Part shown: positions 12,301 through 59,204 of the stretch, piece by piece
Numbering within the stretch: the stretch's first letter is position 1
Layout of the letters: the number at the start of each line of letters is the position of its first letter
Source of the DNA: Candidatus Undivivens industriae
GTDB taxonomy: Bacteria > Omnitrophota > Gorgyraeia > Gygaellales > Profunditerraquicolaceae
Reading direction: 5' to 3'
NCBI GenBank assembly: GCA_012514745.1
Contig: JAAYZR010000015.1
Span: 7,479-71,478 of the forward strand
Length of the DNA stretch: 64,000 nt
Program-made: the position numbers and the translations under genes
Notes under the pieces: model-generated
What the model was told of the DNA's origin: nothing
The model's database searches: none
The model's input: the letters and a program-made list of their open reading frames with translations, nothing else

Positions 12301-12640
12301 CTTTACGCCCTTTCAATTCATTCAATATCTCCTCGATATGCATGCTGTATTCGCTGGAACGATCCACCTTAAATACCATCTCCGGGCTGAAACGCAATTT
12401 AATCCTCTCGGAGACCAGCTTGCGGATGAACCCCAACGCAGACTCAAGCGCTTCGCCGCTCTTTTTGCGCGTCGCCTCTTCTCCCAGCACGCTGTAAAAG
12501 ATCTTGGCAAAACGCAAGTCGTCGGTAAGCTCCACCCTGGTGATGGTGATAAACCCCAGCCTGGGGTCTTTCATCTCGTTATGTATTATGTTGCTCACTT
12601 CTCTCTTTATCGCCTGGGAAACTTTATCGCTCCTGCTCAT
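12281..12640 (-). CDS. rbfA: Ribosome-binding factor A
   Basis: 119 aa: RVELTDDLRFAKIFYSV… is typical RbfA. Confidence 0.85.
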   Translation of the reverse strand: MSRSDKVSQAIKREVSNIIHNEMKDPRLGFITITRVELTDDLRFAKIFYSVLGEEATRKKSGEALESALGFIRKLVSERIKLRFSPEMVFKVDRSSEYSMHIEEILNELKGRKDDEKSC

Positions 12641-13952
12641 TTCGGCCCGCTCCTTTCACTTCCCTGTCCGCGGCGGCGTACCTGCGTATCAAACTGCGCG
12701 CCAGGGCCAGTTCATCCTGCCTGCTTTGCACTTCTCCGTTAAGCCTGGCCTCGAGCACGGCGGAAAATATCCGCTGGTAAAGCGGCCCCGGCCCGCAGCC
12801 AAGCTGATGTATATCCCTGCCGTTTATACGAATGGGCATCCCGTTATAAAAACAGAGAAAGTCTTCTATGTTTTTTCTGAACTGCCCGCCGCCGTGTTTT
12901 ATGCTCAAGAAAAGTATGCTTTCGTAACTCAACGGCTCGAGTATCGAATATATTTCCGACGGCCTGGCGCGCGCGGAATGAAGCCGCTTCAGGCGCGCCG
13001 CGCCGAGCTGTTTGACTGCCAGGACTCTTTTTTCGTCGCCTCGGCGCATGCCGAACCTGCGGCAGAATTCCACCGTCTGGGCTGCCGTTAAGGCGTCCAG
13101 AAGGATCATCAGATTGACCACCCAGATATCCGGACGCCTGCGGTGCGGCAGTCTTAGGCTGAACCAGGCGTCCCTTGCAGGGACGCGCCTGAATAAAGAA
13201 CATTCTTCCCTGCCGAGGGAAACCCGCGGATGCAGAAAATCCAAACCCGCCGTGCGTTCAAGCCTGCGCAGTTGTCTGCAGGGGGACTTCTCTTTAAGCA
13301 TCAACAGCAGTTCGTCGCGCAGCCTGTGCGGATGCACGGAATGGAGCATCCCGGCACCGGCGGATTTTTTCAATAAGGACAGTGTTCTCGGCTCTATCCT
13401 GAAACCATACCTCTGTTCGAACCGGACGGCACGCAGGATGCGGGTCGGATCGTCAATAAAACTCTCCTTATGCAATACCCGTATCTTCCCTGCCTTTAAG
13501 TCGCTCAGCCCGCCGAAGGTATCGATCAACCTGCCGAAATCACCATCGTTTATGCTGGCCGCCATGGCGTTGATCGTGAAATCCCTGCGGTAAAGATCGT
13601 CCCCTATCGTCCCCGGTTTGACCGAAGGCAGGGAAGCCGGCACCGGATAAGTCTCGGTCCTGGCGGTGGCCACGTCGACCTTCAGGCCGCCGTGCGCGAC
13701 GGTCGCGGTCCCAAACCTGTGGTGGTGGACAACATTTCCCTTGAGCAATACCGCCAATTTCCGCGCCGTTTTCATCCCGTCTCCCTCAACTACGAAATCG
13801 AGGTCGTAACTGTCGGCACGCAATAAAAGGTCCCGCACGCAACCGCCTACCAGGAATATTCTGCCGCCGCTGTCTTCCGCCGCTGCGGCCGCGAGGCCGA
13901 TCGCATCCCGGGCATCCTCAGGTAATTTTAACAGAAGCCGGTCAATCTTCAT
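12624..13952 (-). CDS. cca: tRNA nucleotidyltransferase (CCA-adding enzyme) / poly(A) polymerase family
   Basis: GGCVRDLLL…DLDF is a head-domain motif of the Pol-beta nucleotidyltransferase family, plus an HD-less bacterial CCA architecture. Confidence 0.75.
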   Translation of the reverse strand: MKIDRLLLKLPEDARDAIGLAAAAAEDSGGRIFLVGGCVRDLLLRADSYDLDFVVEGDGMKTARKLAVLLKGNVVHHHRFGTATVAHGGLKVDVATARTETYPVPASLPSVKPGTIGDDLYRRDFTINAMAASINDGDFGRLIDTFGGLSDLKAGKIRVLHKESFIDDPTRILRAVRFEQRYGFRIEPRTLSLLKKSAGAGMLHSVHPHRLRDELLLMLKEKSPCRQLRRLERTAGLDFLHPRVSLGREECSLFRRVPARDAWFSLRLPHRRRPDIWVVNLMILLDALTAAQTVEFCRRFGMRRGDEKRVLAVKQLGAARLKRLHSARARPSEIYSILEPLSYESILFLSIKHGGGQFRKNIEDFLCFYNGMPIRINGRDIHQLGCGPGPLYQRIFSAVLEARLNGEVQSRQDELALARSLIRRYAAADREVKGAGRNEQER

Positions 13953-14046
13953 ATTCCCCCCAGTCTAATACATTGTTACAAAAGTTTTCTTAGTGTTTGA
14001 TAATCGAAAGCAGAAAGTCGACCGCAAACGAGAACTTCCATCTAAG

Positions 14047-14160
14047 CGGAGCCCCTCGGGCTAAACAGGCCGGGGATTTCCGGGCGAGGGGATTAAATCT
14101 CGATTTTCTACTCTCCATTACTCCGTGCGCTGTTTAAAGAAATTATTTAACAGCGCACTA
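14047..14160 (+). repeat. Composite repeat: GGAGCCCCTCGGGCTAAA + CCGGGGATTTCCGGGCGAGGGGATTAAAT module + family-2 terminal hairpin
   Basis: The hairpin at 14125..14159 is identical in its stem to the 2325..2359 copy. The left modules recur at 49401..49429 and 49689..49720 (inverted). Confidence 0.8.
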
Positions 14161-15045
14161 CGGCCTGGGATGGAACATCTTGTGCACAGATTTCAGCCGG
14201 TCTTTATTGATATGCGTGTATATCTGCGTCGTGGAGATATTCGAGTGCCCCAGCATCTCCTGAACCGAACGCAGGTCCGCCCCGCGCTCAAGAAGGTGCG
14301 TGGCGAAGGAATGCCTCAACAGGTGCGGTTTGATCTCTTTCTTGATGCCCGCCTTCAAGGCGTAGCTTTTGATCATCTTCCAGACCGACTGCCTGGAGAG
14401 GCGCCGCCCCAATCTGCTGACAAACATATAATCGCTCTGTTTCTTCCCAAGCATCTTCCGGCGGCTCTTCTCGAGATAAAACCTGACGCTCTCGACCGCC
14501 TTACCGCCGAGAGGCACAACCCTTTCCTTGTTGCCCTTGCCGATACAACGCAGAAACCCGACATCCATGTTCACCGACCCGGTCTTGAGATCGACCGCCT
14601 CGGAAACGCGCATGCCTGTGGCGTAAAGCGTCTCCAGTATTGCCCTGTCTCGTATGCCGCGCGCCCTGCGCAGGTCCGGCTGCGCCAGCAGAGCCTCCAC
14701 TTCCTCCACGGAAAGAGTATCCGGTATCTTCTTCCAGAGTTTCGGGGTATCTACCAACCCCGAAGGGTCATCCTTAAGCACCCTCTCCCGCACCAGAAAA
14801 CGGTAGAACATCCGTATCGCCGCCAGCCGTCTCGCGATGGAATTGGAAGATATGCCGCGCGCCTTCTGGGCAGACATAAACTCCACGATATCGCTGCGCG
14901 TAACCCCGGATAACGCGCCGGCGGAACGCTCGGATAAAAACGCCGCATATTTCTTAAGATCTCCCCGGTAGGAAACGAGCGTATTGAAAGACAGCCCGCG
15001 TTCCACGGAAAGATAATTCAGAAAGGTTTCCACCAGCTCTTTCAT
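14158..15045 (-). CDS. Tyrosine site-specific recombinase, XerC/XerD family
   Basis: 295 aa with R…HxxR…Y catalytic residues (HSFATHLLERGADLRSVQEMLGHSNISTTQIYTH). The stop codon lies inside a family-2 repeat hairpin. Confidence 0.85.
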   Translation of the reverse strand: MKELVETFLNYLSVERGLSFNTLVSYRGDLKKYAAFLSERSAGALSGVTRSDIVEFMSAQKARGISSNSIARRLAAIRMFYRFLVRERVLKDDPSGLVDTPKLWKKIPDTLSVEEVEALLAQPDLRRARGIRDRAILETLYATGMRVSEAVDLKTGSVNMDVGFLRCIGKGNKERVVPLGGKAVESVRFYLEKSRRKMLGKKQSDYMFVSRLGRRLSRQSVWKMIKSYALKAGIKKEIKPHLLRHSFATHLLERGADLRSVQEMLGHSNISTTQIYTHINKDRLKSVHKMFHPRP

Positions 15046-20181: not shown

Positions 20182-20187
20182 ATTCTT

Positions 20188-21193
20188 AATTCCGGGGACA
20201 CAATACTTAATTCAAGAAAACGACAAGAAATCGTGTTAGATTTTACCATTTTCTTGCGTCTATTATAAGAGAATAGAATTATAGCATAAGTTTCTAATTC
20301 CGGGGACACAATACTTAATTCCCCTTCTCAAATTATACGGCTCCGCGGGATACCGTTTGTTCTCGGAAGGATTTTCTTGAGATAGCGGCCAAACCTCATC
20401 TGCTCCATAAATGGCGCGCTTTTTGTATAAACCAACAAGAAGGAGGCTTTCAATGGCAAGGATAGCGAGATTAGTCGTGCCCGGAATCCCCCACCACATT
20501 GTGCAGAGAGGCAACAGACGCCAAGATGTTTTCTTTAACGACGATGACAGAAGGGCCTATCTTAATTATCTAAAAGCATACGCTATTCCTTCTGGGATAG
20601 AATTCCTGTCATATTGTTTAATGGATAATCACGTGCATATTATTGGTATCCCGAGTAACAAGGATAGTTTTGCCGACGGTTTCGGAGAAGCACATCGCAG
20701 GTACACAAGAATGATCAATTTTAGAAAAGGATGGAGAGGATATTTGTGGGAAGGCAGATTCAAATCGTACCCCTTAGGGGGCGCTTATTTATATGCCGCG
20801 CTTCGTTATATAGAAATGAATCCTGTAAGAGCGGAAATGGTGAAGAACGCCTGGGACTATCCATGGTCAAGCGCAAAAGCACATGTCTTGAACCACACTG
20901 ACATTTTACTAACAAATAATTGTATCGCTTCGGAAGTGGAGGACTGGAGATCTTTTCTTTCCGAAGATGACAAACAAGATCACGCCGACTTATTAGAAAC
21001 GCATTTGATGAGCGGACGGCCGTTGGGAGATAATAAATTTATCGAGAAGGTAGAAAGATTAACCGGCAAAATACTGTATAAGCAGAAACCGGGACCGAAG
21101 AAGGCTGAGGATTAATTATACGGGGATACGATACTTAATTATCGCATCTCCGGCATGAGCTGCTTAATAATTAAGTATTGTGTCCCCGGAATT
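20188..21193 (+). mobile_element. RAYT/REP locus: REP-associated tyrosine transposase gene flanked by REP copies (2 direct upstream, one REPIN downstream)
   Basis: REP at 20188..20212 and 20296..20320. RAYT CDS. Degenerate REP 21116..21140 plus inverted REP 21169..21193. Confidence 0.8.
20453..21115 (+). CDS. REP-associated tyrosine transposase (RAYT, TnpA_REP; IS200/IS605-like Y1 HUH transposase)
   Basis: MARIARLVVPGIPHHIVQRGNRRQDVF…, HUH motif in …LMDNHVHIIG…, catalytic Tyr region …YLYAALRYIEMNPVRA…. Start set at ATG 20453 (AGGAGG 7 nt upstream). The track start 20411 is an upstream in-frame Met. Confidence 0.85.
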   Translation: MARIARLVVPGIPHHIVQRGNRRQDVFFNDDDRRAYLNYLKAYAIPSGIEFLSYCLMDNHVHIIGIPSNKDSFADGFGEAHRRYTRMINFRKGWRGYLWEGRFKSYPLGGAYLYAALRYIEMNPVRAEMVKNAWDYPWSSAKAHVLNHTDILLTNNCIASEVEDWRSFLSEDDKQDHADLLETHLMSGRPLGDNKFIEKVERLTGKILYKQKPGPKKAED

Positions 21194-21196
21194 ACG

Positions 21197-21270
21197 CGCG
21201 CCTGGCAGGACTCGAACCTGCAACGCCCAGCTCCGAAGGCTGGCGCTCTATCCAATTGAGCTACAGGCGC
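21197..21270 (-). tRNA. tRNA-Arg (anticodon TCG)
   Basis: Hand-folded cloverleaf: acceptor GCGCCUG/CAGGCGC, D-arm GCUC…GAGC, anticodon stem CCAGC/GCUGG with loop CUUCGGA (anticodon UCG), T-arm GCAGG-UUCGAGU-CCUGC. CCA is not encoded. Confidence 0.8.
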
Positions 21271-21454
21271 ATAATTAATGTGTACTTGCGCAATTCCTCA
21301 TAAGCGCAAGGTGCGCATAATTAATGTGTACTTGCGTAATTCCTCATAAACGCAAGGTACGCATAATCAATGTGTACTTGCGCAATTCCTTACAAGTGCA
21401 AGGTACGCATAATTAATGTGTACTTGCGCAATCCCTTACAAGTGCAAGGTACTC
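21271..21454. repeat. Tandem repeat, 4 × 46 bp, directly abutting the 5′ end of tRNA-Arg
   Basis: Units at 21271, 21317, 21363 and 21409 (about 90 % identical). Each unit contains the inverted repeat CTTGCGC…GCGCAAG. Confidence 0.85.
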
Positions 21455-21559
21455 AAAATCCAAATCTTCAGCGGCGGGCGCATAAGCGCAACGCGCGCGC
21501 ACACACGGTACTTTCATTTTTCCAGGAATCTATAACCCCGCACCCAGGGCCCGCTTGTA

Positions 21560-30422: not shown

Positions 30423-30475
30423 TTCCGGGGACACAATACTTAATTATAATAATTAAGTATTGTGTCCCCGGAATT
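30423..30475. repeat. REPIN (5-bp spacer) at the dnaB 3′ end
   Basis: Forward copy 30423..30445, inverted copy 30451..30475. The dnaB stop TAA is at 30474..30476. Confidence 0.9.
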
Positions 30476-45989: not shown

Positions 45990-46877
45990 CTAATTCCCGG
46001 AGACCTGGTCCCTGAGCCCGTATTTCCTGACATTATTGTCAGCGATCTCCTGGATCTTCTTTATTTCCTCGGCGGCACCTGTGAGGTGCTTAAACCTTCC
46101 CTGCATTTTCAGGTACTCTTCCACAGGTTTGGCCTGTGTTAGTTTACGCACGGCGGAGAGCTGTCCATTCTCATACTCAAACAGCGGATAAAGACCGGTT
46201 TCTACGGCTGCTTTCGCCACGGTAAGGGTAAGGCTCGAATCGTGCCTCCACCCGAGCGGGCATGGGACATGTATCTGCATATATTTGGGGCCTTTTATTG
46301 AAAAGGCTTTCTTGACCTTTCTCTGGATGTCCTGCGGGAACGCTACCGAGGCCGTCGCTACATACGGGATGCCGTGCGCCACGGCTATCTCCGGCAGGGC
46401 TTTCTTGGGCCGCAAATTGCCGAAAGACTGTTTGCCGGCCGGGCTGGTGGTAGTGTTGGAATCGAAAGGCGTCAGGCCGCTGCGCTGGACACCGGTGTTC
46501 ATATAAGCTTCATTATCGTAGCAAACGTAGAGAATGTCGTGACCGCGTTCCAGCATTCCCGAGAGAGCCTGCAGGCCGATATCGGCGGTCCCGCCGTCGC
46601 CGGCCTGGGCAATAACGTTGATACCGTCTTTCTTGCCCAGGAACTTGAGTGCGGATTCGACTCCGGAAGCCACTGCCGCGCAGTTCTCGAATAAAGAATG
46701 GATAAACGGGACCTCCCAGGCTGACTCCGGGTATTTCGTGGAAAACACCTCCAGACAGCCGGTGTTATTGACTACTATAGTGTTCGGCCCGCCGGCGTCT
46801 ATGACAAGTCTCGCCGCCAAAGACTGGCCGCATCCCGCGCAGGCGGTATGACCCGAGACAAAAAGGTTCTTATTCAT
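45990..46877 (-). CDS. porB: Pyruvate/2-oxoacid:ferredoxin oxidoreductase, beta (TPP-binding) subunit
   Basis: …GHTACAGCG… N-terminus and the TPP-binding GDG motif (AQAGDGGTADIG). Confidence 0.85.
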   Translation of the reverse strand: MNKNLFVSGHTACAGCGQSLAARLVIDAGGPNTIVVNNTGCLEVFSTKYPESAWEVPFIHSLFENCAAVASGVESALKFLGKKDGINVIAQAGDGGTADIGLQALSGMLERGHDILYVCYDNEAYMNTGVQRSGLTPFDSNTTTSPAGKQSFGNLRPKKALPEIAVAHGIPYVATASVAFPQDIQRKVKKAFSIKGPKYMQIHVPCPLGWRHDSSLTLTVAKAAVETGLYPLFEYENGQLSAVRKLTQAKPVEEYLKMQGRFKHLTGAAEEIKKIQEIADNNVRKYGLRDQVSGN

Positions 46878-48051
46878 AACTCTCCTTTAGAAGTTCCGGC
46901 TTCAGGTCTATGAACTCGCCGTTTCTTTCCCTGCCGTTTAGTAATTTTATCACTTCCCTGATCGAGTCTTTGGTAATGTCCCTGCCGCCGAGCCCGACCA
47001 CGAAACTGCTGATCACAGAAGGGGCCTTTTTCTTGCCGAAGAAAGCCGCTTTGACTTCCGAAGCCAGCGGGGCGGTCGACCCCAGAGACAACGCCCTGTC
47101 TATCACGGCGACCTTGGAGGCGCCTTTGAGCGCGTCGTATATTTGCTGCGCCGGGAACGGCCGCAGACAGGATACTTTCAACATTCCTATCTTCTTGCCC
47201 TTCGCCCTGGCTTCGTCTATGACTTCTTTGATGGTGCCGCAGACGGAGCCGATGGCGACGATCACCTTTTCGGCGCCCTCGAGATGATAACCTTCCACCA
47301 ATCCGTTATACTTTCGGCCGAAGGTCTTGGCGAACTCCGCGGTTATCTGAGGGAGCATATCCAAAACCTTCTTGTGCGTCTCCTGCAGGGCATAACGCGT
47401 CTCCGTGTAATATTCCGGATCCACCAGCGGCCCCATGGTCACCGGGGCTGCCGGGTCGAGCTTATACGGAGCGATATATGGAGGCAGGAAACTATCCACC
47501 ATCGCCTGCTCGGGGATATCGACCGTCTCGATCCCGTGAGTAAGGACAAATCCGTCCATGCAGACCATAACCGGGAGCATGATCGATTTATTCTCGGCGA
47601 GTTTGTAAGCTATAAGGTGCAGGTCCACCGCTTCCTGAATATCTTCGGCGTGCAGTTGTATCCAGCCGCTGTCGCGCAGGGATACCGCGTCTTGCTGATC
47701 GTTCCAGATATTAATGGGAGCCGAAACAGCCCTGGCCGCGCAGGTCATCACCACCGGCAATCTCATCCCGGCGATGTTAAAAAGCACTTCGAACATATAA
47801 AACAATCCCTGGGAACTGGTCGCGGTGTAAGAGCGCACGCCGGTAGCCGACGCCCCCAGCACCACGGAGGCCGCGGAATGTTCCGATTCCACGTTCACGG
47901 TCTGCGCCGCGAGTTTCCCGTCGGAAACAAACTGCGCCAAGTCCTCTACGATGTGCGTCTGCGGGGTTATGGGATAGGCGGATATCACGCCGGGTTTGCA
48001 TTGGCGCACGACCTCCGCTACTGCGTGTGAACCTTCAACGAACTCTTTCAT
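46870..48051 (-). CDS. porA: Pyruvate/2-oxoacid:ferredoxin oxidoreductase, alpha subunit
   Basis: 393 aa with PorA N- and C-domains. It overlaps porB by 8 nt. Confidence 0.85.
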   Translation of the reverse strand: MKEFVEGSHAVAEVVRQCKPGVISAYPITPQTHIVEDLAQFVSDGKLAAQTVNVESEHSAASVVLGASATGVRSYTATSSQGLFYMFEVLFNIAGMRLPVVMTCAARAVSAPINIWNDQQDAVSLRDSGWIQLHAEDIQEAVDLHLIAYKLAENKSIMLPVMVCMDGFVLTHGIETVDIPEQAMVDSFLPPYIAPYKLDPAAPVTMGPLVDPEYYTETRYALQETHKKVLDMLPQITAEFAKTFGRKYNGLVEGYHLEGAEKVIVAIGSVCGTIKEVIDEARAKGKKIGMLKVSCLRPFPAQQIYDALKGASKVAVIDRALSLGSTAPLASEVKAAFFGKKKAPSVISSFVVGLGGRDITKDSIREVIKLLNGRERNGEFIDLKPELLKESYE

Positions 48052-48083
48052 AGCTATTCCTTTTCAGTATAGGGATGACGCGG

Positions 48084-48341
48084 TTAGTTTTCCTCTTTAA
48101 CCATTTCGATGTCCTGTTTAGGACAAACGGAGGCGCAAAGACCGCACCCCTTGCAGAAATCCGGGTCGAATCTGTAGGTATTCTTCCCTTCTCCTTCTAT
48201 GCAGGCTTCGGGACAAACCAAAAGGCACATACGGCAGGCGATGCAGTTCTTCTGCAGGTATTTCGGCCTTTTTTCGGTCCGCCATGAACCTGTTTTATTA
48301 TTTTTGCTGGAACCGGGCTTGGAAATAAGTGGACCGAACAT
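48084..48341 (-). CDS. porD: Pyruvate:ferredoxin oxidoreductase delta (2×4Fe-4S ferredoxin) subunit
   Basis: 85 aa with two CxxCxxCxxxCP motifs. Confidence 0.8.
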   Translation of the reverse strand: MFGPLISKPGSSKNNKTGSWRTEKRPKYLQKNCIACRMCLLVCPEACIEGEGKNTYRFDPDFCKGCGLCASVCPKQDIEMVKEEN

Positions 48342-48901
48342 TATTTTACCTCGTTATATTTATGTTTCACGTACTCAAACCCCTCTTTTACCGACGCTAT
48401 ATTCCCATCCAACGCTTTACCGCTGAATCTCTTCTTGATCGCCTCCAGCAGCGCCTCCTGGCTGAACTCTCCGGTGGCTGCGGCAAACGCGCCAAGCAGG
48501 GCCGTGTTGGCCAGCGGCCTGCCGATAGTCTTCATGGCTATATCCGTCGCCGGAACCAGCAAGGCCTTCTGGCGCGCCGACAGTTTCGGGATTTCCACTT
48601 CGCCGTCCTTGCCGTTTATCACGGCGATGCCGGCGTCTTGCAGACCGGAAAAACAGTTGAACCCGCGCATCAGAGTCGGATCAATCACCAGCAGATAATC
48701 CGGTTCGTAAATTTGGCTGCGCAGGCGCACGGGTTTGGAATCCACCCGCACATACGCGTTCATCGGCGCTCCCATACGCGCGGCCCCAAAATTCGGAAAG
48801 GCGTAAGGATACATCCCCTGCAGGGAATAAACATACCCCAGCAACGAAGCCGTGGTAATGGCGCCCTGCCCCGCCCTTGCGTGAATACGTATTTCTTTCA
48901 T
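48341..48901 (-). CDS. porC: Pyruvate:ferredoxin oxidoreductase gamma subunit
   Basis: MKEIRIHARAGQGAITTASLLG… The start is at ATG 48901 (RBS AAGGAG). The track's longer ORF runs into a repeat element. Confidence 0.8.
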   Translation of the reverse strand: MKEIRIHARAGQGAITTASLLGYVYSLQGMYPYAFPNFGAARMGAPMNAYVRVDSKPVRLRSQIYEPDYLLVIDPTLMRGFNCFSGLQDAGIAVINGKDGEVEIPKLSARQKALLVPATDIAMKTIGRPLANTALLGAFAAATGEFSQEALLEAIKKRFSGKALDGNIASVKEGFEYVKHKYNEVK

Positions 48902-48973: not shown

Positions 48974-49104
48974 TACATTCGGGATGAAAGACAAGTTGGG
49001 TTCTGTTGGTTACTGTAACCGAAAATCGAAAGTTGACCGTCTCGCCACTGAAGCGTTGGCGGTTTCGTGCGCTGTCCAAAAAACTTACTGAACAGCACAC
49101 TCCC
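48974..49104 (+). repeat. Family-2 mosaic intergenic element (about 131 bp), full copy A
   Basis: About 85 % identical to the reverse complement of 52335..52474. It contains GGTTACnGTAACC and GCCRCYGAAGCGTTGGCGG inverted repeats and the terminal hairpin GTGCGCTGT…ACAGCACAC. Confidence 0.85.
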
Positions 49105-49400
49105 CGGAATTCAAGAGGTTTTGTAGTATTTTACTGCCGCCCTCCGGGGCTGTCAAACATTATTTTTAAGACATAGGTGTAACTTGCTGCGGCAATTAAA
49201 GTTATAGCATACAGCCATCAAAAGGGCCCGGCAGGCGATTTCTACAGTAAAAGGAACGGATCTAAGCAGTTCAACAGTTTCACTACAAAGGGTTGTCGAA
49301 GGAGTCAACCGCGGCGCGCCGGGTAGATTGCTTCAAGAAGGACGGCCGACTTTCATCCGGCTTACCGCCTCCACTAACCGGGCCCCTCATAATGCGTTAT

Positions 49401-49720
49401 ATTTAATCCCCTCGCCCAGAAATCCCCGGGTTTTAACCCGGGGGTACCTTAGCCTATAGGATGGCTAAGTATTCACCTGTGTGTTATACCTTAGCCTATA
49501 GGAATAACACCCTGCCTTAAAGGAAAGGCAGGTGTTCACCAGTGTGAAAGTATTCGCTCGTGCGTTATACCTTGGCCAATTGGGATAACACCCTGCCTTT
49601 AAAGGAGAGGCAGGTGTTCACCAGTGTGAAAGTATTCGCTCGTGCGGTACACCTTAGCTTATTGGAAAGCTAAGTGTTCGCTCGTGCGAAGGAGCCGCGG
49701 GCTTTAGCCCGAGGGGCTCC
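49401..49720. repeat. Composite repeat region: 28-bp GGATTAAAT/CCGGGG module (inverted), a CCCCGGG hairpin, about 3 tandem ~82-bp units (49446..49688), and a GGAGCCGCGGGCTTTAGCCCGAGGGGCTCC hairpin
   Basis: Units: 49446..49487 (partial), 49488..49568, 49569..49650, 49651..49688 (partial). Each full unit contains CTGCCTTAAAGGAAAGGCAG and TTCACCAGTGTGAA hairpins. Confidence 0.8.
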
Positions 49721-49839
49721 ACAATAGTTACAACGCCGGATCTTTAAGTTCCTTGATCTCCAAACCCGAGAAGCTGATTTCCAGCGGACTGTTGATTTGC
49801 TGCGGTTTGATTAATTGGTACTGTGCGCTCGGCTCTGTT

Positions 49840-51132
49840 TTAGCGCCCTATTCCTTTATATAGGAATCCGAATCGCTCCATTGTCTCCGGATTAAAAATG
49901 TTCCTGCCGTCTATGATAAACCGGCTGCGCATCACTTTTTTAAGTTCGGCCGGGTCAAGGCGCCGGAATTCCTCCCATTCAGTAACTACCAGCAGACAAT
50001 CCGCTCCTGTGGCGGCGGCGTAGGCGTCACGGCAGAACTTCACCCCCTTTAATTCCCGCGCGGCTTTAGGCATCGCGTGCGGATCATAAGCCCGGATCCT
50101 GGCGCCTGAGCGCTGCAGCGTAACTATGAGCTCAAGAGCGATGGAATTACGTATGTCATCGGTGTTCGGTTTGAAGCTTAAGCCCAGCACGGCGATGGTC
50201 TTGTTTTTTATTTTACCGAGCCCAGCTTTTACTTTCTTGAAGACGACTTTCTTCTGCTCCTTGTTTATACTGCGCACTGCTTTCAGCAATTCAAAGTTAT
50301 AGCCTTTTTTCTGGGCGATATGAATAAAGGCGTCCAGGTCTTTGGGAAAACAATACCCCCCGAACCCGGCCCCGGCGTCGAGAAAAGAGGCGCCGATGCG
50401 CTTGTCGAGCCCCATGGCGTGCGCCACCTGCTTGACATCAGCCCCGACAAGCTCGCAAAGATTGGCCACGGCGTTTATAAAGGATATCTTGGTGGAAAGA
50501 AAACCGTTGCAGGCATGCTTGATGATCTCCGCCGTGGGAATATTGGTCACTACAACCGGGGCATTGATCGGGGCATAGAGCCTGCGCATTATCTTCCCGG
50601 CCTTCTCGCTTTCCACCCCTATCACAATGCGGTCGGGATGCATGGTATCGGAAATGGCCTGCCCCTCACGCAGGAACTCCGGGTTGGAGGCCACGTCGAA
50701 TTCGTATTTGCCGCGCGTTAACCTTTCCACGGTCTGCCGGATACGTTCCCCGGTCTGTACCGGGACCGTGGATTTAGCGACGATCACTTTGTAGCCGTTC
50801 ATAGACCCGGCGATCTCCTGCGCCGTATATTCCACCGCCGAAAGGTCCGCGCCGCCGTCAGCGTTGGCCGGCGTGCCCACGCAAATGAAAATAATATCCG
50901 ACTTGCGCGCGGCTTCTTTGATGCTGTGAATAAACCCTATCCTGCCGGACTTTCTGTTCTTTCTTATCAACTCATTCAGCCCGGGTTCATAAATGGGAAC
51001 GCCGCCTTTCCTCAGTCTTTCCAGTTTCCCGCGGTCGTTGTCCACGCAGAGCACTCTATTGCCGATCTCCGCTAAGCACGCCGCCGTCACCAATCCTACG
51101 TATCCGGCACCTATCACGCAGATGTTATACAT
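49840..51132 (-). CDS. ugd: UDP-glucose 6-dehydrogenase
   Basis: MYNICVIGAGYVGLVTAACLAEIG… with a catalytic Cys region (GFGGYCFPKD). Confidence 0.9.
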   Translation of the reverse strand: MYNICVIGAGYVGLVTAACLAEIGNRVLCVDNDRGKLERLRKGGVPIYEPGLNELIRKNRKSGRIGFIHSIKEAARKSDIIFICVGTPANADGGADLSAVEYTAQEIAGSMNGYKVIVAKSTVPVQTGERIRQTVERLTRGKYEFDVASNPEFLREGQAISDTMHPDRIVIGVESEKAGKIMRRLYAPINAPVVVTNIPTAEIIKHACNGFLSTKISFINAVANLCELVGADVKQVAHAMGLDKRIGASFLDAGAGFGGYCFPKDLDAFIHIAQKKGYNFELLKAVRSINKEQKKVVFKKVKAGLGKIKNKTIAVLGLSFKPNTDDIRNSIALELIVTLQRSGARIRAYDPHAMPKAARELKGVKFCRDAYAAATGADCLLVVTEWEEFRRLDPAELKKVMRSRFIIDGRNIFNPETMERFGFLYKGIGR

Positions 51133-52160: not shown

Positions 52161-52185
52161 AACTCCGGGGACACGATACTTAATC
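52161..52185. repeat. Degenerate single REP (AACTCCGGGGACACGATACTTAATC) at the galE 5′ end
   Basis: 3 mismatches to the consensus. Confidence 0.7.
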
Positions 52186-52334
52186 AAGCCGCAGAATGCG
52201 GCGCAGGTTACCCCGTAGAGTGCCGGGAAAATGTCGAAGAGATTTCCCCGGTATCTTACGACATGGGGTTAATTTGGGAAGCTCCCCAAGGGGAGCTTCA
52301 TTACTCGGTAACGCTTACGGTCACGAAGCCCGTT

Positions 52335-53858: not shown

Positions 53859-53985
53859 AACACAGATTCTATCATAAACTTCCTTTGAGCTTAAGGTATA
53901 TTTATTCCCCGGCCCGGATACCGGAGCAAATATACATCCTTTTTAAGAAAGCCGGTATTCAGCATGGCGTATAGAACGAACACCT

Positions 53986-55485
53986 TTAAGGCTGGGCCAT
54001 GCTTCTATATGTTCCGGAGAGGATCCTTCTGCAGGCGAGGTCGGCGCTGATCAGGCACATCGGCACGCCGATGCCGGGGAGAGTGTTGCCTCCGGCATAG
54101 AACAGGTTGCGTATTTTCCTGCTCCTGTTAGCCGGCCTGAACATCGCGGTCTGCCCGAGAGTGTGCGCCAGCCCGAGCGCGGAGCCGCGGAAACTGTGGT
54201 AACGCGAAACGAAGTCCTTCACGCAAAAATGATGTTTGACCTGCAGTCTTGACCGCAGAGACGGGATATTCATTTCTTTTTCCATCATGTGCAGTATCCT
54301 GTCCGTATAGGCGGACAATTCCCCGGGCCCGTATTCCAGCCCGGCAGGGATCGGCACGAAAACGAACAGGTTCTCCTTGCCGCGCGGCGCGACGGCGGGG
54401 TCGGTTTTGGAGGGGCAGCAGACGTAGAAAGAGGGATCCCGCGGCCAGCGCGGCTCGTCGAAGATGTCGGAAAAGTTCTTCCCCCAGTCCGCGCTGAACA
54501 ACAGGTTGTGATGAGCGAGCGAAGGTATCTTGTCTTTCACTCCCAGATAAAGCACAAGCCCGGAAGGAGCGACGACCCGCGTCCGCCAGTAACGCCGGCT
54601 GTAACTGCGCAGACGCTGTTCTTTGATCAAATCCGTCTCGGTATGATAAATGTCCGCGTTGGAGATGACGACATCCGCGGGCACCTTATCCCCGGCTGCC
54701 AGCTCGATGCCGTCGGCCAGGCTGCCATAGGTCAGTATGCGCGAAACGTCCGAGTTATAATGGAACTGCGCCCCGGAGCGGGCCGCTATTTTTTCCAACG
54801 CCTCGACGATCTTGTAAAGCCCTCCCTGTGGATAGAAAACACCCATATCCAGGTCAACGTGGCTCATGATATTGTAGAATGCCGGGGTGTTATACGGAGA
54901 ACTTCCCAAAAACACCAGCGTGTACTGGGCGACCTTCTGCATCTGCGGACTCTTGAAGAACCTGCCGACATAATCCTGCATACGGCTGAAAACTGAAAGC
55001 TTGACGCCCTGACTGAGCATGCGCCAGTTGAAAAAATCCAGCGGCGAGTCGTAATTACGCCAGACGAACTTACCCATGGCGATATTATACTGGTAAGCGG
55101 CCATCTTCAGGTATTCGCGCAGCCTCTGCCCGGCTCCCGGTTCCAGAGAATCCGCCGTCTGCGCGTCGCGCGCGAGGTCGGAGTAGAAATCCACCTGCCT
55201 TCCTCCCTTAAAAAAGACCCGGTAAGAAGGGCTCAATTTCACCAGTTCCAGGTGGTCATCCACACGCTCATTGAGAAGCGCGAAAAATTTCTCGAAGATG
55301 TCCGGCATAAGGTACCAGGACGGCCCCATATCATAGACAAAACCCTGGGCCTCCATAATATTGCAGCGCCCGCCGGCTTTGCGGTTATTGTCGAACACTT
55401 TCACATCCCACCCTTCTTTGGCAAGGATGCAGGCTGACGCCAGGCCGCCGATGCCGGCCCCGATGACCGCGGCTTTCTTCTTCAT
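53986..55485 (-). CDS. crtI: Phytoene desaturase family protein (CrtI/CrtN-like)
   Basis: AAVIGAGIGGLASA…GGRC…, 499 aa, with a C-terminal FAD motif …YAGGNTLPGIGVP…. Confidence 0.8.
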   Translation of the reverse strand: MKKKAAVIGAGIGGLASACILAKEGWDVKVFDNNRKAGGRCNIMEAQGFVYDMGPSWYLMPDIFEKFFALLNERVDDHLELVKLSPSYRVFFKGGRQVDFYSDLARDAQTADSLEPGAGQRLREYLKMAAYQYNIAMGKFVWRNYDSPLDFFNWRMLSQGVKLSVFSRMQDYVGRFFKSPQMQKVAQYTLVFLGSSPYNTPAFYNIMSHVDLDMGVFYPQGGLYKIVEALEKIAARSGAQFHYNSDVSRILTYGSLADGIELAAGDKVPADVVISNADIYHTETDLIKEQRLRSYSRRYWRTRVVAPSGLVLYLGVKDKIPSLAHHNLLFSADWGKNFSDIFDEPRWPRDPSFYVCCPSKTDPAVAPRGKENLFVFVPIPAGLEYGPGELSAYTDRILHMMEKEMNIPSLRSRLQVKHHFCVKDFVSRYHSFRGSALGLAHTLGQTAMFRPANRSRKIRNLFYAGGNTLPGIGVPMCLISADLACRRILSGTYRSMAQP

Positions 55486-56372
55486 ATATTTCCTCCGGGC
55501 AAAGTTAAAAGCGTTCTTAAAGCCAGAACCGTTTTCTCGGCCGTCCCGCTGCGGGCGCGGCCCAGGAATATGTTATAATCCATCTGTTTTATCTTCACCA
55601 GGATGCGGCTGTAGAAAGCCGAGGCCACGCGCACCGCCAGCCTGCCGCGCTTGTCCAGCATGGCGATCCCGGGCTGGGCGCGGCGGTAAAGCCCCGCAGA
55701 ACGCTCTACCTGTAATTTCATAAAATCCCGGAATGCCGGCGAGAAACGCCTGCGCGCGATGTCTTCACGCGAAAGCCCGCAGGCAGCCAGCTCGTCGCGC
55801 GGCATGTATATCCTTCCCCTCTGCCGGTAATCCTCGTCTATATCGCGCAGAAAATTGGTCAGCTGCATCGCTTCTCCCAGGCAGGAGGCGTATTCCAGCG
55901 CGCGCGGGTCGTTGAAACCGATGATATAACAAAGCATCAATCCCACCACGCAGGCCGAGCCGTACATATATTCGCGCAATTCTGCGTAATTCGCGTATTC
56001 CCGCTTCTCGCTATCCATGAACATCGAGCGGAAGAAATCCTCGCTGTAACCATAGGGGATATTATGTCTGCGAAACGCGCTCAGCGCCGAACGCAGGACA
56101 GGTTCATCCGAAACATCCTTGCGGCAGGCGACGCGCCATTTCCCCAGCCAGGCGGAAAGCTCTGCCTTTATGCGCTCTTCGCCGCCGGAACGGTTATTGT
56201 CCGCGATCTCATCGGGGACGCGCAGAAAGGCGTAAAGCGCATAGACGGAACGGCGCAATTCCGCCGGGAAAAAAGCGGCGGCGTAATAATAATTCAACCC
56301 GTGCTTTTTGTTGAGCGAACGGCAGATCCGCAGATCCTCTTTTTCCGTGCCGGAAACTACAGACATATTCAC
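55482..56372 (-). CDS. crtB: Phytoene/squalene synthase family protein
   Basis: …YYYAAAFFP…YAFLRVPDEIAD… and a second Asp-rich motif (RDIDED). Confidence 0.8.
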   Translation of the reverse strand: MNMSVVSGTEKEDLRICRSLNKKHGLNYYYAAAFFPAELRRSVYALYAFLRVPDEIADNNRSGGEERIKAELSAWLGKWRVACRKDVSDEPVLRSALSAFRRHNIPYGYSEDFFRSMFMDSEKREYANYAELREYMYGSACVVGLMLCYIIGFNDPRALEYASCLGEAMQLTNFLRDIDEDYRQRGRIYMPRDELAACGLSREDIARRRFSPAFRDFMKLQVERSAGLYRRAQPGIAMLDKRGRLAVRVASAFYSRILVKIKQMDYNIFLGRARSGTAEKTVLALRTLLTLPGGNI

Positions 56373-56662
56373 CGATTTTGCGCTTTTTCCCAGACGATCA
56401 GGCAGAAGCCGACCATACTGAAACCGAAGAGAAAATCCTCCAACGGGATGCTCCCCAGCCTTATACCGGAGAACATCGCCGGGTTATAGATAACTATTAG
56501 TCGCGAGGTAAGATATCCGTTCACCAGCAGTTTAAAGAAAAAAATCACCGCCAGGAAAACGTAAAAGAGGCGGTTCTTCATCAGCCCGGTCCGGAAGATC
56601 CTGTCCATTACCGGGATCGCCGCGGCAAAAATGATTGCGAGCAGGGTATATTCCCGCATCAC
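56369..56662 (-). CDS. Lycopene cyclase domain protein (heterodimeric CrtYd-type subunit)
   Basis: 97-aa membrane protein with a lycopene_cycl-domain-like PLEDFLFGF motif. Confidence 0.6.
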   Translation of the reverse strand: MMREYTLLAIIFAAAIPVMDRIFRTGLMKNRLFYVFLAVIFFFKLLVNGYLTSRLIVIYNPAMFSGIRLGSIPLEDFLFGFSMVGFCLIVWEKAQNR

Positions 56663-56973
56663 GCCTTCCTGTATTTGCGTTCCAGATACTTGAGAGTTTC
56701 CCAGGTAAAAAGACAGCAGAACGGTATGACCACAAAGAAAAGTATTTCCTCAAGCGGGAGGCCGAGGAAACGGAACGGCCGCACCGCCTCCTGACGAAAA
56801 GACCAATGGCCGCGAGCGGCCGCCAGGACATCCCAGCCGCCGAAAACCAGCAAAGTAGCGCCTATCGCGGCGGTAAACGCCGAAAAACGACGGTAGAATT
56901 TTAAAGGAGGCCAGAAACTAAGAAGCAGCGGCAGGGAAAGGGAAATCAAAAGAACCGCCATGTATTCCGACAT
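56659..56973 (-). CDS. Lycopene cyclase domain protein (heterodimeric CrtYc-type subunit)
   Basis: 104-aa membrane protein with a …LGLPLEEILFFVVIP… motif. It overlaps its partner by 4 nt. Confidence 0.6.
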   Translation of the reverse strand: MSEYMAVLLISLSLPLLLSFWPPLKFYRRFSAFTAAIGATLLVFGGWDVLAAARGHWSFRQEAVRPFRFLGLPLEEILFFVVIPFCCLFTWETLKYLERKYRKA

Positions 56974-57230
56974 GACCTTATTTTATCCTAACCGCCGAAT
57001 ACGTCAACAGTATTTAAAGGTCTTGTGTCTTGTGCCGTATCTTTGTCTTTTTTGTCGAGCGTTTCATCATCACACAATCGAACACTTGACAATCCAATAA
57101 GCTAAGGTGTAGGCCCGACACCTCAAAAATGCATGGCGTTTTAGACTATTCGGGGGAGGCACTTATGCCGCAGCTCTCTGCGGCAGCTAAAATAAAAGAC
57201 ACCCGGGGCCGCGACGGGACAAGACAATAA

Positions 57231-58286
57231 TCAACAGGCGAGCAGACGTTCGGCGTAATCGGCAAGGGCCGTTCGGCAGGTTTGGCGCATACGCAGTGAA
57301 TTACCTATCTTCACGGCCTTTTCGCGCAAGGCAGAAACTTCTTGTTTGACGCGTTCCAGTGCGCCGCAGCCGGCGATAATCCCGCGCATCCGTTCCAGAT
57401 CGGCGGCGGTGACCAGTCTTTTTGCCAGCACGGCCTTGATCTCGGCGCGCTGACCGGAATTCCCCATGCGATAGGCGTAATACATCAACACCGTCTTCTT
57501 GGCTTCCTGAAGGTCGCTCAAGGAAGGTTTTCCGCTTTCATCGGAGTTCGAGAACATACCGATAATATCATCCTTAATCTGAAAGGCCCTGCCGAGGCAG
57601 ATGCCGTATTCGTCAAGTTTTTTTATTTCGGACGCGGGAGCGTTAGCCAGGATGGCGCCCACGGACAACGGGCAGGAAAATGTGTAGTAAGCGGTCTTGT
57701 AATCGTAAATCTTGTATATGTCCGCGAGTTTGACACGGCTGAGTTCTTCTCCCCCCAGAAGCAGTTCAATGAATTCCCCGGCGCCGGTATAAAGCGCGGC
57801 GTCCACGAATTTGCGCAGGCCCTGTTCTTTATATTTCATATCCACCTGGACCTCCAGGAAGGCGTGAATGGCCATGGCGTAAACCACGTCGCCGGCAACG
57901 ATCGCCAGATCCTGCCCGCTGAATTTGACCTTAGAGGCGCCTCTGATACCTTTACGCAGGAGGACGTGCATCGCCGGTTTACCGCGCCGCAGGTCTGATT
58001 TATCGATGATATCATCGTGGATAAGCATGAAATCGTGCAACAGCTCGATGGAGAGAGCCGAGGTATACAACCCCGGCGCCGGTTTTCCGGCATAGCCGAG
58101 ATAGCCTATCACGAGCATTATCGGACGGATGCGCTTGCCGTCCCTGCCGATGAACTCGCTAATGGCCCGCTCAAGGGAAGGTGATACTGCTTTTAGACTG
58201 CGGAAACGCCCGCTTCTCAGGAATTTTACGAGTTCTCCGTCGATTTCTTTTTTCAGGATTTCAAACATCTCTGCCTCTTTCCGCAA
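57231..58286 (-). CDS. Polyprenyl synthetase (GGPP synthase-like, CrtE/IdsA)
   Basis: First DDxxD (LIHDDIID) and second Asp-rich motif (FQIKDDIIG). Confidence 0.85.
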   Translation of the reverse strand: MRKEAEMFEILKKEIDGELVKFLRSGRFRSLKAVSPSLERAISEFIGRDGKRIRPIMLVIGYLGYAGKPAPGLYTSALSIELLHDFMLIHDDIIDKSDLRRGKPAMHVLLRKGIRGASKVKFSGQDLAIVAGDVVYAMAIHAFLEVQVDMKYKEQGLRKFVDAALYTGAGEFIELLLGGEELSRVKLADIYKIYDYKTAYYTFSCPLSVGAILANAPASEIKKLDEYGICLGRAFQIKDDIIGMFSNSDESGKPSLSDLQEAKKTVLMYYAYRMGNSGQRAEIKAVLAKRLVTAADLERMRGIIAGCGALERVKQEVSALREKAVKIGNSLRMRQTCRTALADYAERLLAC

Positions 58287-58289
58287 TAC

Positions 58290-59204
58290 TCAATATCCGA
58301 GGTCCTTTAATATATACGGATCGTCTTGCCATCCCGCGCGGACCTTGACGTGCATCTGCAGGAAGACTTTTTTGTCCAGCAGTGTCTCCAGTTCGACGCG
58401 GGCCGTCTCCCCGGCTTTTTTCAAAACGCTGCCGCCCTTGCCGATGACTATTGACTTCTGTGAATCCCTCTCCACCAACACGACCGCGGAGATGAACATC
58501 ACTTTACCCCGCCTCTGCGCCGTCTCTTCCACATACACCGCCAGGGAATGCGGTACTTCATCTTTGAGAAGAAGGAAAAATTTCTCTCTAATGATATCGG
58601 CGATCGCCAGCTTCTGGGGAAAATCCGTAAGAACTTCCGGCGGGTAAAGCAACGGCGCTTCCGGCAGCAGTCCGAAGAGGACGTCCACCAGCTTGTCGGT
58701 ATTGATACCGGTCATCCCGGATACCGGCATAAGAACGAACCTATCCTCCGTCTCCGTCGCCGGCTTGCCGAGCGCCTTTTCCCATTCTTTGATGTAGCCG
58801 TCCATATAGGCGGCCTTGCGATCAACCTTGTTCATCGCCAGGATTACCGGAGTCTTCCTGCCGCTGAGTTTCTCTATGATCATGCCTTCTTCGCGGCCGA
58901 GCCGCTCGCAGGCGTCCACCAGATGGATTATAACGTCTGCCCCTTCAATGGCGCTGTCTATGTCGCTAAGCATGTGCCGGCCGAGTTTGTTGCGGGAAAG
59001 GTAAATCCCCGGGGTGTCGAGAAAAACGATCTGCCCGCGTTTTTCGGTGAGCACGCCGCGTACCTGGTAACGGGTCGTCTGCGGCACCGGAGAGACTATC
59101 GCCACCTTCTCCCCCAAAAGAGTATTCATCAATGTGGATTTTCCGGTGCTCGGCCTGCCGACTATGCAAACTACGCCGCAGCGTTGACCTTGTTGATCAT
59201 TCAT
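58290..59204 (-). CDS. era: GTPase Era
   Basis: G1 GRPSTGKST, G3 DTPG, G4 NKVD and a C-terminal KH domain. The start is at ATG 59204. The track ORF has a 29-aa N-terminal extension. Confidence 0.9.
   Translation of the reverse strand: MNDQQGQRCGVVCIVGRPSTGKSTLMNTLLGEKVAIVSPVPQTTRYQVRGVLTEKRGQIVFLDTPGIYLSRNKLGRHMLSDIDSAIEGADVIIHLVDACERLGREEGMIIEKLSGRKTPVILAMNKVDRKAAYMDGYIKEWEKALGKPATETEDRFVLMPVSGMTGINTDKLVDVLFGLLPEAPLLYPPEVLTDFPQKLAIADIIREKFFLLLKDEVPHSLAVYVEETAQRRGKVMFISAVVLVERDSQKSIVIGKGGSVLKKAGETARVELETLLDKKVFLQMHVKVRAGWQDDPYILKDLGY

Follow-up and report, generated by a model that had tools for sequence, protein, structure and literature searches.

A tandem array between ugd and porCDAB in Candidatus Undivivens industriae as the probable interior of a modular mobile repeat element of the Omnitrophota

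The 64,000-nt stretch of Candidatus Undivivens industriae analysed here and referred to as the window (assembly GCA_012514745.1, contig JAAYZR010000015.1, positions 7,479 to 71,478) contains a conspicuous array of hairpin-rich units of about 82 bp at 49401-49720, in the spacer between ugd and the porCDAB operon. A first-pass annotation made from the letters of the window took it for a minisatellite born inside a repeat element at this locus or for a structured RNA locus, with a possible effect on por expression. Here, we interpret the array as the variable middle of a non-autonomous mobile element, modular in build and 315 nt long, which represents one copy of a Candidatus Omnitrophota repeat family; to this reading we give a probability of about 0.7. 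At its core is a direct observation, namely that whole elements of this family, compact or expanded, are discrete units of presence and absence.

Anatomy of the element and its family

The array of 82-bp units is borne out by Tandem Repeats Finder (TRF; period 82, 49467-49667, 2.5 copies, 86% matches, score 309) and by a direct-repeat search that returns 67-nt copies of 91% identity spaced 82 nt apart and 55-nt copies of 84% identity spaced 81 nt apart. It folds far better than shuffled sequence on either strand (z -7.0 and -7.8), the hairpins named earlier (CTTAGCC/GGCTAAG, CCTGCC/GGCAGG and TTCAC/GTGAA) are all present, and its units are contiguous and mutually similar, with no identical repeats separated by unique spacers, in keeping with the earlier remark that it is not CRISPR-like. 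Two modules flank the array. A piece of the first, L1 (GGAGCCCCTCGGGCTAAA), has two exact matches in the window (14048 on the + strand and 49703 on the - strand) where 0.06 would be expected by chance, and a piece of the second, R (CCGGGGATTTCYGGGCGAGGGGATTAAAT), likewise occurs twice (14070 on the + strand and, with 1 mismatch, 49401 on the - strand) against a chance expectation of 0. The modules are indeed contiguous at 14048-14098 and inverted and apart at 49401-49720, as first noticed, with the distances amended: the gap is 4 nt (CAGG) and not 3 in the former, and 273 nt, and not some 245, in the latter, of which the array fills about 243.

The complete expanded element occupies 49408-49722 (- strand), limits that follow from its exact absence in two related contigs described below and whose termini agree with those of a second filled/empty pair. 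Read on the + strand, with R first, it runs 5'-TCCCCTCGCCC...GGGGCTCCAC-3'; the order is L1, cassettes, R on the - strand, which is sense for both ugd and por. The R end module (49408-49443, - strand; CCCCGGGTTAAAACCCGGGG ATTTCTGGGCGAGGGGA) has the - strand consensus CCSGG-loop-CCSGGGGATTTCTGGGCGAGGGGA, a GC hairpin followed by GGATTTCTGGGCGAGGGGA, and the L1 end module (49691-49722, - strand) reads GTGGAGCCCCTCGGGCTAAAGCCCGCGGCTCC. Each end thus carries a GC hairpin of its own, at 49424-49443, 16 nt inside the R terminus, and at 49691-49720 (GGAGCC...GGCTCC), 2 nt inside the L1 terminus, and the two ends also share a 7-bp inverted core. Between them, TRF, the direct repeats and the comparison of arrays resolve 49446-49688 (- strand) into a chain of about 11 short hairpin cassettes, which includes the two 82-nt super-units and draws on five types: ACTTTCACACTGGTGAAC; ACCTGCC-loop-GGCAGGGT; GTTATYCC..GGCYAAGGT; RTAACNCACNRGNGAAT; and ACTTAGCY-loop-RGCTAAGGT.

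The same ends are found at about 30 distinct loci in Candidatus Omnitrophota contigs, which we designate by L numbers where they have to be told apart. R recurs in 30 non-redundant copies, either solo, for example between genes read from the locus sequence as gyrB and gyrA, or closing arrays, while L1 opens elements in L016, L017, L024, L026, L027, L030, L035 and L043 and, together with R, bounds L045. That the array lies inside a compact repeat element, as first suggested, is upheld by copies in which the end modules are contiguous. One of these is the compact copy of 47 nt in the window, which consists of the L1 core and R without cassettes (14046-14092, + strand) and lies between xerD (14158-15045, - strand) and a PolyA_pol-family gene (12624-13952, - strand). 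Modules combine as L1-R, L1-L2-R, L1-array-R, L1-L2-array-R or R alone, L2 being an 85-nt module that is only sometimes present, and the number of cassettes per element ranges from 0 (14046-14092, L045 and L023) through about 11 (49408-49722), with 3 to 15 elsewhere. The same cassettes occur in varied order in 18 other arrays. Across the family, they fall into the types ACTT-TCAC-ACTG-GTGA-AC, AC(C/T)T-stem-loop-stem-A(A/G)GGT, GTTATYCC...GGCYAAGGT and RTAAC-NCAC-NRG-NG-AAT, and although their order differs among loci, the junctions at which they meet, GAAY|ACYT and GGT|RTWAY, are constant.

In the set of species-representative genomes, TTCACACTGGTGAACACCTGC, a 21-nt piece of the unit, matches six contigs, five of them from two Omnitrophota metagenome-assembled genomes and one binned as Anaerolinea. 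The 21-nt pattern of R is found in 31 metagenome stretches, two of which, in high-GC coding DNA, look like chance matches. The contig of the other bin (L015, CAYVRT010000071.1, 'uncultured Anaerolinea sp.') bears two typical cassette arrays and likely belongs to the Omnitrophota, having been mis-binned; that the repeat spread horizontally is less likely. A further module, ATTAACCCCGTGTCGTAAGATACCGGRAAAATC, at 52248 of the window and in L017, L018, L022, L026, L029 and L032, often lies beside R or opens an array in place of L1. In L025, the left flank is common with L022 and the right flank with L024, the switch falling exactly at the R module; this is either a recombination between R copies or an assembly chimera. 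Full-text literature searches and look-ups in Omnitrophota papers yielded no description of such repeats.

The hairpins of the cassettes are conserved as structures. In one cassette class, 36 distinct stems are 99% paired, a percentage inflated by the prior selection of hairpins with at least 6 of 8 Watson-Crick pairs, from which double changes do not suffer: five of the eight stem pairs show compensatory double changes, in 42 cells against 13.7 in shuffles, and none of 500 shuffles reaches the observed value. Conservation of unit structure, one of the checks proposed at the outset, was thus found. The idea of a dedicated structured RNA locus fared otherwise. At both gathering and permissive thresholds, Rfam returns only tRNAs and one fluoride riboswitch elsewhere in the window and seven loci, the best E value in the array region being at least 1.3, and the same element sits in about 30 unrelated contexts. 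Three further kinds of array were set aside on anatomy: type III toxin-antitoxin repeats, as there is no adjacent toxin gene; an integron attC array, there being neither an adjacent integrase gene nor cassette open reading frames; and a tandem promoter array, as no hexamer pair has the proper spacing.

A stand-alone RNA could nevertheless be imagined, in the form of a small RNA (sRNA) that titrates a protein or the ribosome, the + strand presenting GGA loops in the manner of the CsrB/RsmZ sponges for CsrA and the - strand UCC/CUCC loops that would pair with Shine-Dalgarno sequences. The CsrA consensus obtained by systematic evolution of ligands by exponential enrichment is RUACARGGAUGU, which one loop, UAUAGGAU, resembles, and the + strand has six GGA motifs in all, in the loops UAUAGGAU, AAAGGA, UUAAAGGAG and AUUGGA and, as two GGA/GGGA, in larger loops. 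The setting is hardly that of an sRNA gene, however, in that no conserved promoter precedes either end, with upstream flanks that differ at every locus, the + strand has no T-run terminator, common cassette variants lack GGA (for example, those with the loop CTCAATTA), and the copies, tens of them, are scattered in both orientations with no conserved stand-alone locus and can be done without in a sister strain. We hold this reading to be highly improbable. A tblastn search found no csrA in the 0.49 Mb searched, which is uninformative given an incomplete genome, and a match to Hfq was spurious, lying within the coding sequence immediately upstream of ugd, which is annotated in L001 as an NAD-dependent epimerase/dehydratase. 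A quite unlikely further reading is that arrays, when transcribed, act in trans as RNA through their conserved loops, which present GGA on one strand and UCC/CUCC on the other.

The history of the array can be read from its relatives. Ugd is encoded identically on nine metagenome contigs, and in the eight of these that span the array, from at least five samples, the array is the same in every case, so the variation in copy number that was proposed as a check is not seen. In the ninth, L005, the sequence departs from the ugd-por locus within the array (L005 2530-2900) and runs on into a longer, related array next to genes for TatD and ThiF. It was this contig that first hinted at a dispersed repeat; the switch is probably an assembly join across the repeat. 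Another contig of the same metagenome, L017, has the cassette order A-B1-C1-D-A-B2-C2-D-E-R, the same as the ugd-por element. Aligned over 328 positions, the two elements agree at 268, and what remains is L2 and the first cassettes. The two 82-nt units therefore arose by a duplication that predates insertion between ugd and por. Within a single element, array content does vary, as L012 carries L1-L2-array-R where the orthologous L021 has L1-L2-R, with a CCGG microhomology at both edges. A minisatellite expanding inside an element is therefore the right picture for the family and the wrong one for the ugd-por locus, where the whole 315-nt element is one unit of presence and absence and where the array was not born. 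Such arrays would grow, shrink and reshuffle by slippage or recombination at their near-identical junctions (GAAY|ACYT and GGT|RTWAY). We also considered, as a quite unlikely extension, that the cassettes themselves are mobile, a Y1 transposase of the TIRYT/RAYT type pasting each as single-stranded DNA beside an existing cassette, such that arrays stack inside an L1-R 'landing' element.

Empty sites, target and mode of movement

Two pairs of filled and empty sites define the element as a unit. Contigs L054 and L055, with a Ugd that is 98% identical, about 97% identity across the spacer and the ugd-porCDAB order kept, lack exactly 49408-49722. The empty site reads ...GTAACTATT|TAAAATATAACG... 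and the filled site, on the - strand, ...GTAACTATT|GTGGAGCC...GAGGGGA|TTAAATATAACG; when the flanks of the latter are joined, one base differs and nothing is duplicated. The second pair is provided by the compact 47-nt copy, present in the window and two close strains and absent from L059 (XerD 87% identical), where GAGATTTGA|TTCGATGGAAG is uninterrupted, the filled form being GAGATTTRA[47 nt]TTAGATGGAA. Termini are identical in the two pairs, neither has a target-site duplication, and on the R-first strand the element follows directly after TTTRA, with empty/filled flanks of TTTTA/TTTAA at the first site and TTTGA/TTTAA at the second.

In the ugd-por copy, the putative target or cleavage pentanucleotide is the TTTAA that abuts the R end (49403-49407, + strand) and is not duplicated at the other end. 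Family-wide, TTAA, mostly as TTTAA, follows R in 21 of the 30 non-redundant copies, and in 10 of the 30 its TAA is the stop codon of an open reading frame of at least 100 aa. Most copies lie just 3' of the stop codon of a gene and most between co-directional genes. At about 21 of 28 loci, R comes first on the G-rich strand, which is the sense strand of the genes alongside (binomial estimate, p ~0.01), the ugd-por copy being of the minority orientation. GC skew was discarded as a marker of the replication strand, as it merely tracks gene orientation.

This placement could also suit a REP-like cis element selected by the host, its hairpin chains and R being kept for their action in situ and spread mainly by recombination rather than transposition. 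Roles open to it would include protection of mRNA 3' ends, termination or insulation between operons, effects on translation after a stop codon, and binding of gyrase- or IHF-like proteins. Of the R copies, a third do start at the stop codon of the upstream gene, most copies sit between co-directional genes, R forms a 7-bp GC hairpin followed by AUUUCU on the ugd strand, and compensatory change has maintained the stems. Such roles are known for REP/BIME elements (PMC2817692, PMC6006769), and BOX repeats are transcribed as 3' extensions of operons, for which similar effects have been proposed (PMC3049150). At both tested loci, however, there are close strains that lack the element with all neighbouring signals intact, orientation to genes is not fixed (about 21:7), the number and order of cassettes vary freely, and a TTAA/TTTAA target, harmless nowhere but at the ends of genes, accounts for placement at stop codons just as well. 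We judge selection in situ to be unlikely.

We favour transposition, and the absence of duplication, the constant TTTRA flank, the covarying hairpins and the orientation bias together point to the Y1/HUH 'peel and paste' mechanism, the known mechanism that combines these features (PMC6006769). The element would move as single-stranded DNA in the manner of IS200/IS605 or RAYT elements, mobilized in trans by a Y1/HUH transposase. Insertion of a single strand coupled to replication would give such an orientation bias (Quentin 2018, PMC6006769). The only candidate enzyme seen is encoded at 20411-21115 (+ strand), a Y1 (HUH) tyrosine transposase gene of the RAYT/TIRYT type that was found by tblastn with a RAYT query. 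Its product matches PF01797 (Y1_Tnp; E 2.8e-10, 40.8 bits, cut-off 23), with a REP-associated tyrosine transposase as the best NCBIfam match at 51.5 bits, below the cut-off of 80, and the HUH motif (HVH) and the tyrosine (in RYIEMNP) can be read from the translation.

The gene is flanked by modules of another repeat, P, with AATTCCGGGGACACAAYACTTAATT upstream and its inverse downstream, as are its homologues in L047, L049, L051 and L053 (68-72% identity). P (AATTCCGGGGACACAATACTTAATT) forms inverted copies around it at 20187-20213, 20297-20323, 21113-21140 and 21167-21196, and the GGGGACAC within it fits GGGGWSAS, the motif of TIRYT terminal repeats (Di Nocera 2013, PMC3733652; Quentin 2018, PMC6006769). 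The cassettes were rejected as the cognate REP of this transposase, as the four homologous loci carry only P repeats. P does abut arrays at several loci and shares a GGGGA..AC..ACTT string with cassette junctions. About 150 nt past the Y1 gene lies a second array, of 4.2 copies of a 46-nt unit with the related cassette ACTTGCGC-AATTCCTCACAA-GCGCAAGGT (21268-21459, + strand), which starts at the 5' end of a tRNA gene (21197-21270, - strand); among the window and the four homologous loci, only the window has a cassette array near the Y1 gene. Elsewhere, tRNA genes come after the two cassette arrays of L015, and a tRNA comes before an L1-L2-R element of L024. The window holds about 15 copies of P in its 64 kb, mostly as REPIN-like inverted dimers (3467/3514, 30423-30473, 41706/41749, 45428/45471 and 59306/59347), that at 30423-30473 being a perfect palindrome with 23-bp arms, and single copies at 52163 and 63888. 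Homologues of the transposase with E <=1e-10 number 5128, mostly on contigs of 1-2 kb.

A number of observations weigh against a mobile element moved by such an enzyme. The only Y1 gene seen is flanked, in the window and the four homologous loci, by a different repeat, and none of those four has cassettes alongside. Within the 0.49 Mb, all L1-R pairs are less than 500 nt apart, and the search met with no autonomous element bounded by L1 and R, nor did tblastn with the TnpA of IS608 and IS200 and the TnpB of ISDra2 find an IS200-type TnpA/TnpB. Solo R copies are not explained by a two-ended transposition model alone. The presence/absence events cannot be polarised as insertion or precise deletion, because the more distant ugd loci are not syntenic: in L056 and L057 (Ugd 81-82% identical) the gene is not beside por. 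In both of these, ugd is followed by other repeated hairpins, of the GGCGGGCGAAGTCCGCCAAAG type (L056 4291-4580, L057 4294-4582). Mismatches in the stems of one cassette class are G:T rather than A:C by 11:3 (about 7 against 3 independent events; about 12:5, by eye, with the other classes), a bias of few events that favours the strand opposite to the 'top' strand of the insertion model; the counts are too weak to name a functional strand.

A last point of this kind, the 7-bp inverted core shared by the ends (CCCCTCG/CGAGGGG), could point to an enzyme that recognizes terminal inverted repeats, and with it to a classical MITE (a miniature inverted-repeat transposable element), a deletion derivative of a DDE-type insertion sequence recognized through such repeats. 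Around this core, GAGCCCCTCGGGC agrees with the reverse complement of GGGCGAGGGGATT at 9 of 13 positions, and the element is, as a MITE would be, small, non-coding, dispersed and polymorphic in presence. The lack of a target-site duplication at either empty site nonetheless places it outside the DDE MITEs. The inverted repeat is, moreover, short (7 perfect bp) and set in from the ends, a different hairpin stands at each end, and the L1-R pairs in the 0.49 Mb reveal no matching insertion sequence. A MITE origin is thus very unlikely.

The ugd-por copy and its neighbours

On the gene strand, ugd (49840-51132, - strand) lies 5' of the array, with porC, porD, porA and porB (45990-48901, - strand) beyond it. 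The spacer between ugd and porC, earlier put at about 940 bp, measures 938-939 nt, and in it the element sits past the ugd stop codon, ahead of a terminator-like hairpin (GCCGGATGAAAGTCGGC then CGTCCTTCTT, 49345-49361, - strand) and about 250 nt upstream of a sigma-70-like promoter candidate for porCDAB (TTGACA-17-TAAAAT, 11/12; 49128-49156, - strand). Both signals are outside the element and downstream of it on the ugd strand. The promoter-like site is identical in the empty-site strain L054, and the hairpin is kept there with a change in its stem. As the promoter-like site runs from 49156 to 49128, the array is upstream of the likely por promoter and not in the por leader, where the first-pass annotation had placed it.

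A cis-regulatory leader or riboswitch-like structure controlling porCDAB is accordingly the most improbable of the readings that we weighed. What speaks for it is a strongly structured array in a long spacer upstream of porC; yet the array is upstream of the promoter-like site, the same element stands beside unrelated genes such as xerD and the gyrB-gyrA pair read from sequence, Rfam has no match to it, and it is missing from a strain with the same ugd-por arrangement, promoter and leader. The supposed effect on por expression falls with this last observation, and neither ugd nor por needs the element, a sister strain doing without it. Rather than a dedicated por control element, we regard it as an ordinary genomic passenger. 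It is probably transcribed within the ugd 3' untranslated region, where its likeliest effect would be incidental, namely the addition of 3' hairpins, possibly exonuclease-resistant, to the ugd transcript, and some transcripts may terminate early at the R hairpin and AUUUCU.

Other features of the window deserve brief mention. A palindromic repeat family, GTGCGCTGT-N(10-20)-ACAGCGCAC, occurs at 2320-2353, 14125-14158, 49067-49100, 52336 and 63779, as well as in L011, L022 and L035; one of these palindromes is inside the presumed por 5' leader (49067-49100) and one directly after xerD. At 4834-4913, a 21-nt unit (GGGACGTGCCAGTCCCCTACT) is repeated in 3.8 copies, each forming the hairpin GGGAC-GTGCCA-GTCCC, and is unrelated to the element family. 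Upstream of ugd, at about 53900-58700 (L001 2865-7147), lies a carotenoid-type cluster with genes for a polyprenyl synthase, two lycopene-cyclase domain proteins, a phytoene/squalene synthase and an amine-oxidase-type desaturase.

Relation to known repeats and significance

The closest functional analogue is the BOX element of pneumococci and other streptococci, boxA-boxB(n)-boxC (Croucher 2011, PMC3049150), to which we liken the family by analogy of architecture. In both, two different conserved ends enclose 0-n internal modules, and the whole is strongly folded, intergenic, often downstream of genes and present in tens to hundreds of copies, with no dedicated transposase known; the BOX of S. 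suis, moreover, mixes several module types. Unlike BOX, which has one 45-nt boxB, the Omnitrophota element assembles at least five distinct hairpin cassettes of 17-29 nt in combinatorial order, and there is no apparent sequence similarity between the two, whose host phyla are unrelated. It also differs in having empty sites that show insertion beside TTTRA without duplication, no comparable empty site having been found for one of the three pneumococcal repeat families examined by Croucher (2011, PMC3049150).

A second comparison is with the REP, BIME and REPIN sequences and their RAYT/TIRYT transposases (Nunvar 2010, PMC2817692; Bertels & Rainey 2011, PMC3116915; Di Nocera 2013, PMC3733652; Quentin 2018, PMC6006769), with which the family shares short extragenic palindromes, mosaic arrays with conserved linkers, a position mostly downstream of genes, high copy number, a single Y1/HUH gene and stems kept by compensatory change. 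It is nonetheless not a REP/RAYT system, as judged by cognate flank, tag and alternation. The Y1 gene is flanked by P and not by cassettes, L1 or R, contrary to what defines a REPtron; the cassettes start with ACYT or RTWAY, without a GTAG or CGTC tag; and they all stand in direct order where BIMEs alternate. Unlike REPs, too, the Omnitrophota element is bounded by ends that are defined and asymmetric, between which everything moves together.

With the IS200/IS605 family of insertion sequences and its miniature derivatives (PATEs), the element shares the absence of target-site duplication and a conserved tetra- or pentanucleotide that abuts one side only. The target of IS608 is TTAC and that of IS605 TTTAA. 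Hairpins lie at or near both ends, a likeness to IS200/IS605 that is blurred by the short inverted core of the Omnitrophota ends. Insertion into the lagging-strand template would fit the orientation bias (PMC6006769). Differences are an interior made up of an expandable cassette array in place of a tnpA/tnpB remnant and the lack, in the 0.49 Mb, of an autonomous partner with the same ends. Derivation from IS200/IS605 thus agrees on target and on duplication, without the autonomous partner.

The family is a previously undescribed set of modular mobile repeats in an uncultivated phylum, and yet an element of a kind already known, as modular A-Bn-C repeats with unknown mobilisers, co-transcribed as 3' extensions of operons, have been documented (Croucher 2011, PMC3049150). 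It accounts for a conspicuous structured array without the need to invoke a por regulator. For work on metagenomes, such repeats break or misjoin assemblies, as witnessed by the switch in L005 and by the short contigs of most transposase homologues, and the probable join in L005 calls for caution over binning and synteny within the lineage; conversely, their presence and absence separate close strains, making them useful markers for strain typing. For the genomes themselves, they supply sequence adjacent to the stop codons of many genes. Were the cassettes themselves mobile, they would represent HUH transposition by the stacking of cassettes and would illustrate the assembly of BOX-like repeats, for which no mobiliser is known. 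The family is a possible model for the construction of modular repeats, and as it offers clean empty sites and a Y1 transposase encoded alongside in one genome, the movement of BOX-like A-Bn-C elements could be put to the test in it.

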